Part shown: in pieces, positions 1,577 to 3,264 of the stretch
Layout: each line of letters begins with the position of its first letter
Position numbering within the stretch: the stretch's first letter is position 1
IMG/VR virus record: IMGVR_UViG_2531839178_000018
DNA length: 3,264 nucleotides
Direction: 5' to 3' (one strand)
Origin: a virus
Lineage: Duplodnaviria > Heunggongvirae > Uroviricota > Caudoviricetes
Made by a program: the position numbers and the translations under genes
Notes under the pieces: generated by a model
The model's database searches: none
What the model was told of the DNA's origin: nothing
The model's input: the letters and a program-made list of their open reading frames with translations, nothing else

Positions 1577-1663
1577 TTATCCCCAGCGGAAAAGTGAATA
1601 CAGAATAAATGCCACCGCTATTGCAACTCCTACTGCGGTGAATGCTTCAGGCCAATTCATCAT
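1577..1663 (-). CDS. Small hydrophobic peptide, 28 aa, predicted single transmembrane helix (not in the supplied ORF track)
   Basis: Hand translation: MMNWPEAFTAVGVAIAVAFILYSLFRWG. ATG at 1663-1661 overlaps the TGA stop of the 209-aa ORF (ATGA overlap); a second ATG follows immediately. GGAGG (complement of 1668-1672) lies 4-7 nt upstream. Its TAA (1579-1577) is 4 nt before the ATG of the 80-aa ORF. It fills the apparent gap 1573-1659. Confidence 0.42.
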   Translation of the reverse strand: MMNWPEAFTAVGVAIAVAFILYSLFRWG

Positions 1664-2823: not shown

Positions 2824-2859
2824 TGAAGTGGCACACTGAATTTGGCCACCTGAACAGAG
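2824..2859 (+). repeat. IS911 left terminal inverted repeat (IRL, about 36 bp)
   Basis: Begins with the TGAAGTGG terminus characteristic of IS911/IS3-family ends. The 36-bp length is from recalled literature; the partner IRR is not in the window. Confidence 0.65.
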
Positions 2860-2895
2860 GTGATATGCTCACCTCAGAACAACACAGGTGCTCCA

Positions 2896-3158
2896 ATGAA
2901 AAAAAGAAATTTTAGCGCAGAGTTTAAACGCGAATCCGCTCAACTGGTTGTTGACCAGAAATACACGGTGGCAGATGCCGCCAAAGCTATGGATGTTGGC
3001 CTTTCCACAATGACAAGATGGGTCAAACAACTGCGTGATGAGCGTCAGGGCAAAACACCAAAAGCCTCTCCGATAACACCAGAACAAATCGAAATACGTA
3101 AGCTGAGGAAAAAGCTACAACGCATTGAAATGGAGAATGAAATATTAAAAAAGGCTAC
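2896..3158 (+). CDS. insN: IS911 OrfA (transposase N-terminal/regulatory protein), about 87 of ~100 codons; 3' end disrupted by IS30, reading frame continues into IS30 sequence
   Basis: ATG at 2896 preceded by AGGTG with a 5-nt spacer. Helix-turn-helix region and leucine-zipper-like heptads ([20 protein letters not shown]) typical of IS3-family OrfA. The track's start at 2860 is a GTG extension with no SD. After ...ILKKAT the translation ([18 protein letters not shown]...) is IS30-derived, not IS911. Confidence 0.8.
3147..3153 (+). promoter_or_regulatory. IS911 programmed -1 ribosomal frameshift heptamer A-AAA-AAG
   Basis: AAAAAAG at 3147-3153 in the orfA frame, at the position where IS911 OrfAB is produced by -1 frameshifting (established for IS911). 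The downstream stimulatory region and orfB have been removed by the IS30 insertion 5 bp downstream. Confidence 0.7.
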
Positions 3159-3184
3159 TGTAGATTCAATTGGTCAACGCAACA
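3159..3184 (+). repeat. IS30 left terminal inverted repeat (about 26 bp)
   Basis: Starts at the abrupt break in IS911 homology. The 26-bp length is from recalled literature. Confidence 0.65.
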
Positions 3185-3220
3185 GTTATGTGAAAACATG
3201 GGGTCGCGGAGGTTTTTTGA

Positions 3221-3264
3221 ATGAGACGAACATTTACAGCAGAGGAAAAAGCCTCTGTTTTTGA
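3221..3264 (+). CDS. insI: IS30 transposase, first 14 codons (3' end beyond the window)
   Basis: ATG at 3221 preceded by GGAGG (3207-3211) with a 9-nt spacer. Translation [14 protein letters not shown] runs to the window end without a stop. Confidence 0.8.

Follow-up and report, generated by a model that had tools for sequence, protein, structure and literature searches.

A family of small, largely unannotated genes encoding predicted transmembrane peptides in the early-left region of lambdoid prophages

The window analyzed here, the whole 3,264-nucleotide stretch of IMG/VR record IMGVR_UViG_2531839178_000018, carries on its minus strand the left arm of a lambdoid prophage, close relatives of which are E. 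coli prophages and phage phi467. The genes on this strand comprise a truncated integrase (84-884), an excisionase of the DUF1233 type (918-1172), a 48-aa gene (1180-1326), an 80-aa DUF4222 gene (1330-1572, with its ATG at 1572; Pfam PF13973, E = 1.4e-15), a 209-aa gene of phrog_492, the function of which is not known (1660-2289), a 31-aa ORF (2298-2393), a 74-aa gene (2390-2614, with its stop at 2390-2392) and, at the upstream end of the operon, a gene of phrog_37628 that is truncated by IS911. The apparent 87-bp gap between the DUF4222 and 209-aa genes is occupied by a further small ORF (1577-1660 or 1577-1663, minus strand), the start of which is overlapped by the stop of the 209-aa gene. 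The prophage is lambdoid and degraded, and this ORF, the subject of the present analysis, is located in its non-essential early-left region (ea/exo-xis type).

The extent of that degradation is evident at both ends of the window, where regions 1-104, 2824-3158, and 3159-3264 belong to inserted elements. At approximately position 104 the integrase is cut by a repeated, unannotated element that recurs in 1185 E. coli genomes; the phrog_37628 gene is truncated by IS911, whose insertion point is 2824; and an IS30 sits within IS911 orfA, with its insertion at approximately 3159. The small ORF is still intact despite the decay of the surrounding prophage. In the closest intact prophages, the leftward operon extends upstream with genes encoding an ORF6N (KilA-N/Bro-N type) protein and a membrane protein with an SPFH (HflK/C-like) domain (5140-5720 and 4350-5096 of L001).

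Read on the minus strand, the locus runs GGAGG TGAA ATG ATG AAT TGG ... TGG GGA TAA AGGA ATG. The Shine-Dalgarno sequence GGAGG (1672-1668), which was read directly, lies inside the last codons of the 209-aa gene, and is followed by two consecutive ATG codons, the first of which (ATG1, 1663-1661) forms an ATGA overlap with the TGA of the 209-aa gene (1662-1660), and the second of which (ATG2, 1660-1658) forms a TGATG overlap with the same stop. The ORF closes with TAA at 1579-1577, and a 4-nt spacer (AGGA) separates this stop from the ATG of the DUF4222 gene at 1572. Translation from ATG1 (1577-1663, 28 codons and TAA) yields MMNWPEAFTAVGVAIAVAFILYSLFRWG, in which A7-F25 form a 19-residue hydrophobic stretch with a best 19-mer Kyte-Doolittle mean of 2.28; across the family this mean is 2.1-2.3. 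A first-pass annotation, made from the letters of the window alone, had described just such a peptide, with a 19-residue hydrophobic core, a GGAGG ahead of an ATGA overlap on the 209-aa stop, and an end 4 nt before the next ATG, and each of these details of the reading was borne out. As gap-filling ORFs of this kind arose through composition alone in 305 of 20,000 dinucleotide shuffles (approximately 1.5%), the ORF on its own is only suggestive; it is the comparative data which lift it far above chance.

The same annotation proposed a product of 28 aa, and although the ORF exists as described, its likely start is the second ATG. The spacing from GGAGG is 4 nt to ATG1 and 7 nt to ATG2, and the sole ATG in relatives aligns with ATG2 of the window; among 172 listed copies the distance from GGAGG to the start is 7 nt in 88 and 10 nt in 64, together accounting for 152. 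Given the alignment of the relatives' single ATG with ATG2, and the distance of just 4 nt between GGAGG and ATG1, a product of 27 aa (MNWPEAF...) is more likely than one of 28, and our preferred gene model consists of 27 codons from ATG2 plus the stop (1577-1660, minus strand), encoding MNWPEAFTAVGVAIAVAFILYSLFRWG, with a single predicted transmembrane helix. Both versions occur in GenBank as entries named "hypothetical protein", the exact 28-aa peptide as ASL58468.1 and the exact 27-aa peptide as ETI78407.1.

The peptide is widespread within a narrow host range. Searching with 116 nt by blastn gave approximately 2600 E. coli hits; of 5426 complete E. coli genomes, 1497, or about a quarter, contain a DNA match, and many of these matches are of only 75-80% identity and limited to the ORF itself. 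By tblastn the peptide was found in 99 phage records, including those of 933W, VT1-Sakai, VT2-Sakai, BP-4795, YYZ-2008, JLK-2012, and Min27. Prophage Sp15 of strain Sakai encodes a peptide identical to that of the window. Further IMG/VR copies were retrieved using a degenerate DNA pattern and a 23-mer from the 3' end, and the counts given throughout refer to the matches listed. Together these amount to at least 172 copies in E. coli and Shigella prophages, Stx phages (933W, VT1-Sakai, and VT2-Sakai) and phage-plasmids. A strict pattern applied to one genome per species (185,579 species) returned only E. coli, Shigella flexneri, an Escherichia sp., and two tiny contigs. The latter, assigned to Xanthomonas pisi DSM 18956 (L015, 431 nt) and Acinetobacter idrijaensis MII (L017, 369 nt), are 96-99% identical to DNA of 933W-type E. 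coli phages, and almost certainly represent contamination.

Within this range, frame, length and stop are all kept: 167 of the 172 listed copies encode exactly 27 aa with an ATGA start. Loss of the frame in related prophages, which the first-pass annotation had named as a contrary finding, was not found. The family consensus is M-[T/S/N]-W-P-E-A-F-x-x-V-G-x-A-x-A-V-A-L-x-x-Y-S-I-C-R-W-G, and per-position conservation identifies W3, P4, A6, G11, A15, A17, Y21, S22, and W26 as nearly invariant. Distant members, namely MTWPEAFANVGTVMAVVLVVYSICRWR (933W), MTWPDAFAIVGVAMSIALIVFAICRWG (Stx2a_WGPS2), and MSWPDAIVTLGMVFAAAFVVYSICRWG (PhiR12_1), represent types with approximately 48-54% amino acid identity, and retain the same length and termini. 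When a 45-aa NCBI entry enclosing the peptide served as query, a homologue search returned only three clusters.

Substitution patterns argue for translation of the proposed frame. In the listed set retrieved by pattern, pooled Nei-Gojobori pN/pS was 0.33 in this frame versus 0.9-1.7 in three other frames. To control for ascertainment bias, we considered only those copies retrieved via the 3' 23-mer and scored codons 2-19, which again returned 0.33, versus 1.1-2.0 in the other frames (the antisense frame that shares wobble positions apart). A value of 0.33 is moderate, and not strong. Variable sites in the same 3'-anchored codons are concentrated at third positions (17 of 18, compared with 12 of 18 first and 9 of 18 second positions), and the commonest peptide is encoded, as an identical product, by 14 distinct nucleotide sequences. 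The window differs from phage JLK-2012 by three substitutions, each of which is silent and falls at a third position. Taken as a measure of constraint, these alignments show purifying selection on the family at the amino acid level.

The 3'-anchored listed sample also contains exceptions, with 115 of 125 copies being canonical. The remaining ten comprise one GTG start, four copies with in-frame deletions (representing three different deletions), two stop losses, and three copies bearing the same 1-nt frameshift. This last lesion, a 1-nt deletion in codon 2, is common to L013 (1199-1281), L146, and L149, and the L013 record annotates a spurious 36-aa CDS in the wrong frame; in Shigella phage POCJ13 (L187, 1201-1281) an amber codon replaces W3. 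The occurrence of broken copies in a few lineages (the 1-nt deletion and the POCJ13 amber) indicates that the gene is dispensable.

The first-pass annotation had judged the gap to be probably coding, and had named a non-coding element such as a promoter or terminator at 1573-1659 as the other contrary finding to look for. No such element was found. A consensus scan of both strands, albeit crude, returned no promoter-like or terminator-like site in 1300-2000; an Rfam search gave no relevant match and no sRNA family over the ORF; and the RNA was predicted to fold no better than shuffled sequences on either strand, no unusual stability being evident (z = 0.68). The antisense frame that shares wobble positions with the proposed gene is open, with a pN/pS of 0.28-0.35, and its low ratio is explained by those shared positions. 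We rejected it as a real gene only for want of a conserved start, Shine-Dalgarno sequence, and stop; in the window it lacks an ATG, and the longest ORF that a GTG could open there spans 17 codons. The earlier judgment is thus supported by the retention of a 27-aa product in nearly all listed copies together with a pN/pS well below that of the other frames, and positions 1577-1660/1663 of the minus strand constitute a genuine protein-coding gene of a previously uncharacterized family.

The family behaves as a self-contained cassette, consisting of the Shine-Dalgarno sequence and 27 codons, which recurs between unrelated upstream genes and downstream sequences. Prophages in which another gene (DUF551) lies upstream become homologous to the window from 1672, immediately 5' of GGAGG; in other relatives homology breaks off at 1573, right behind the stop, and mosaic junctions lie directly 3' of the TAA. 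Upstream, the genes encountered are of no fewer than four unrelated kinds, encoding DUF551 proteins, an approximately 114-aa "ACLAME 31" protein, L0139 of 933W, and the 209-aa protein of the window. Each terminates at a TGA that overlaps the ATG, or 3 nt earlier, and the median length of open frame ahead of this stop is 122 codons. In the window the 209-aa gene closes with tandem stops, TGA TGA (1657-1662, minus strand), the second of which occupies the position of the stop of DUF551-type upstream genes in relatives; a recombination junction therefore seems to lie among the final 3-4 codons of that gene (EV[K/NQ]*). Downstream, the 172 listed copies divide among a hok/sok locus (65), a DUF4222 gene starting 4 nt past the stop (28), another ORF starting 2 nt past the stop (12), and other sequences (67, of which 52 carry a stable terminator-like hairpin within 50 nt). 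Both upstream and downstream genes vary, and no constant neighbor that would point to a partner was found among the listed copies.

Public databases have largely passed over the gene. RefSeq and phage records carry no annotation over the stretch homologous to 1573-1659, and a few GenBank submissions name the peptide "hypothetical protein", "bacteriophage protein", or "prophage protein". Profile searches yielded nothing above threshold: the best Pfam-A matches were DUF7512 (16.4 bits) and DUF883_C (13-14 bits) against a cut-off of 27, the best NCBIfam match was KdpF (E = 0.23; 11.5 bits against a cut-off of 26.85), PHROGs gave nothing better than E >= 0.02, and PADLOC did not match the product. 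Prodigal, for its part, imposes a minimum gene length of 90 nt. A literature search found no paper mentioning the peptide or its string, and the peptide is absent from the searchable supplements of the Sakai, EDL933, and Enterobacteriaceae microproteome studies; from the Sakai Ribo-seq screen (Hücker et al.) it was excluded because ORFs shorter than 30 aa, the minimum of that screen, were left out.

Three partial NCBI entries (P0003, P0016, and P0045), named "DUF551 domain-containing protein, partial", consist of the small-peptide frame extended upstream (GEMMNWPEAF..., GGESMTWPEAF...), and through these mis-named entries the peptide is probably joined to real DUF551 proteins in 90% clusters. 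A fusion of DUF551 with the peptide, or a programmed frameshift between them, was considered and dropped, given that the clustered DUF551 proteins of 121 aa and 185 aa lack the peptide, that there is no slippery sequence, and that the upstream genes vary.

From the anatomy of the gene we infer that its product is essentially one bare single-pass inner-membrane helix. The A7-F25 stretch is flanked by conserved W3, E5, R25, and W26 (these and the residues below being numbered on the 27-residue consensus), as expected at sequence level of a small single-pass membrane protein, and the two tryptophans W3 and W26, 23 residues apart, would be positioned at the two membrane interfaces. The P-E pair at the N-terminal end and the arginine at the C-terminal end suggest an N-out/C-in topology, placing P4-E5 on the periplasmic side and R25 on the cytoplasmic side. 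Since the ribosomal exit tunnel is longer than the peptide, membrane insertion would follow release, and since it has no soluble domain, it would act within the inner membrane. The best-conserved positions of the core are occupied by small residues (G11, A13, A15, and A17), which together make up two overlapping small-xxx-small motifs that may favor tight helix-helix packing. No single conserved helical face was detected, as the observed helical moment was reached by 3193 of 10,000 permutations. Other classes of product were considered and rejected. A lipoprotein is at odds with the lack of a lipobox before C24, where the window variant has F; and a role as an arrest or leader peptide for sensing membrane insertion is at odds with the length of the chain, whose 27 aa have yet to leave the ribosome tunnel when termination occurs.

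The placement of GGAGG inside the end of the upstream gene, combined with the overlap of ATG and TGA, positions the cassette for translation by ribosomes that are finishing the upstream gene. Our best guess is that, once a prophage has been induced or a cell infected, the resulting peptide binds an inner-membrane protein of host or phage and modulates it, much as small membrane-protein regulators such as AcrZ, KdpF, MgtS, and MgtR do. In the window, a probable by-product of its translation would be to help bring ribosomes to the DUF4222 gene. Taken as a whole, a genuine coding cassette, whose transmembrane helix modulates an inner-membrane protein, is on balance the probable explanation of the locus. 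More speculatively, the peptide could be a dedicated phage effector that docks on a host inner-membrane machine, for example FtsH/HflKC, which governs the lysis-lysogeny decision, or the ManYZ/PtsG route of DNA entry; we hold this reading tentatively, and regard it as rather doubtful.

Several features of the peptide would also suit a membrane-damaging role, in which the 27-aa helix oligomerizes and depolarizes or permeabilizes the inner membrane, in the style of Hok, TisB, DinQ, ShoB, or Ibs, or of a mini-holin, so as to bring about host shut-off or abortive killing after induction. The size and pure hydrophobicity of the peptide resemble those of type I toxins, its tandem small-xxx-small motifs could support self-association, and the operon is silent in the lysogen, hence toxicity would be tolerable. 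The hok/sok locus lies directly downstream in 65 of the 172 listed copies, but this is only one among at least four downstream contexts. Type I toxins possess their own promoter and an antisense RNA and are poorly translated, whereas the crude consensus scan of 1300-2000 found neither a promoter for the ORF nor an antisense promoter, there was no sRNA match, and the strong, well-spaced GGAGG and upstream coupling are the opposite of the tight translational repression to which these toxins are typically subject. Nor is there a PADLOC or toxin family match. Holins and pinholins are encoded in the lysis cassette beside the endolysin, span approximately 60-150 aa, and carry a charged C-terminal tail; the peptide lies instead outside any lysis cassette, in an early-left location by xis/int, hok/sok, or ea genes, comprises 27 aa, and has only R-W-G after its hydrophobic stretch. 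We thus consider membrane damage unlikely, and a modulator to be the better fit to a gene with a strong Shine-Dalgarno sequence, a position within an operon, and no antisense partner.

It might also be argued that the peptide itself is irrelevant, and that the act of translation serves to bridge the upstream gene and DUF4222/xis/int by termination-reinitiation. The geometry of the locus is suited to such a role, with an ATGA/TGATG overlap upstream and a 4-nt spacer downstream; moreover, the DUF4222 gene has no well-spaced Shine-Dalgarno sequence apart from TGGGGA (1585-1580), which is contributed by the last two codons of the peptide (W26-G27), lies 7 nt before the DUF4222 ATG, and probably serves in this capacity. 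In relatives of the L007/L011 type, where the spacer before DUF4222 reads CCAC, there is likewise no other Shine-Dalgarno-like sequence. Against a pure coupling role stands the conservation of the peptide sequence itself, evident in the low pN/pS and the 14 synonymous versions, also where nothing follows to couple: 52 listed copies have the terminator-like hairpin within 50 nt of their stop, and 65 precede the hok/sok locus, which in 933W has its own annotated sok RNA. Coupling without a functional product is therefore, in our estimation, very unlikely. The least probable of the explanations weighed is that the ORF has no selected function, and reflects either an 81-nt segment recently spread by recombination, for instance as a conserved junction, or a real gene on the opposite strand. 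The copies are indeed closely related and confined to Escherichia/Shigella, the segment is located at mosaic junctions, some copies are broken, and the antisense frame is open with a low pN/pS of its own. Neither version, however, is readily reconciled with the concentration of variation at third positions (17 of 18, versus 12 of 18 and 9 of 18), with indels that are mostly in-frame, with a start, Shine-Dalgarno sequence, and stop that are conserved on the sense strand only, or with divergent members (approximately 48-54% identity) that keep their length and termini.

The locus belongs, in sum, to a real new family of small genes for predicted transmembrane peptides, largely unannotated, to which a modulatory function is provisionally ascribed from anatomy only. 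The peptide is a conserved phage microprotein present in reference Shiga-toxin phages, and has been overlooked for purely technical reasons, namely length cut-offs. Were it to modulate a membrane protein of the host, it would have a bearing on Stx-prophage induction and lysogeny; otherwise, its recognition corrects the annotation and may explain how the downstream DUF4222 gene obtains ribosomes. Should the peptide prove to be a dedicated effector, then altered lysogenization, induction or superinfection could be expected in Stx phages, and their biology would gain a player that is new, very widespread, and hitherto unannotated.

Comparison with characterized systems places the peptide among, but apart from, several groups of small proteins. 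Closest to hand is the 31-aa ORF of the same operon, which the first-pass annotation had correctly singled out as sharing its coupling geometry: it starts at 2393 in an ATGA overlap with the upstream stop (2390-2392), behind a GGGAGG located 7 nt upstream. Its product, MKSFLLSMLFGLLLASVVFGALIEYKFLMNY, is also a single hydrophobic helix and widespread, the exact peptide occurring on 854 contigs and being annotated in phage phi467. Whether the two peptides are akin had been posed as a matter for alignment, and no kinship emerged: BLASTP produced no alignment even at E <= 100, and the charge layout of the 31-aa product is reversed, K2 standing at its N-terminus and EYK close to its C-terminus. 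Lambda CIII (54 aa), Kil, Orf63, Ea8.5, and proteins of the Ea22 region are likewise small and encoded within the same early-left, non-essential portion of the genome, near ea22/eaA/DUF551 genes, and the small proteins of the exo-xis region are in general presumed to modulate host physiology after infection or induction (PMC10789677, PMC4195576). These proteins are, however, soluble or amphipathic and have been studied, whereas the 27-aa peptide is a predicted integral membrane helix, and the literature searched makes no mention of it.

With type I toxins (Hok/Gef, TisB, DinQ, ShoB, Ibs, and Ldr), a group of hydrophobic, helical peptides that measure just 18-50 aa and are often prophage-associated, the peptide shares its general form, but it differs in having a strong Shine-Dalgarno sequence coupled to an upstream gene, and in lacking its own promoter, an antisense RNA, and a long structured 5' UTR. 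Enterobacteria also encode a set of single-pass inner-membrane regulators, including AcrZ (49 aa), KdpF (29 aa), MgtS (31 aa), MgtR (30 aa), PmrR (29 aa), and CydX (37 aa). The peptide has no sequence similarity to these regulators and, unlike them, is encoded by prophages and not beside a partner gene. It nevertheless belongs to the same size class, with one predicted transmembrane helix and almost no soluble part, and its gene resembles theirs in having a normal Shine-Dalgarno sequence, in lying inside an operon, and in having been overlooked by annotation for its shortness, while helix-helix contacts are the presumed mode of action in both cases (see the review PMC12648545).
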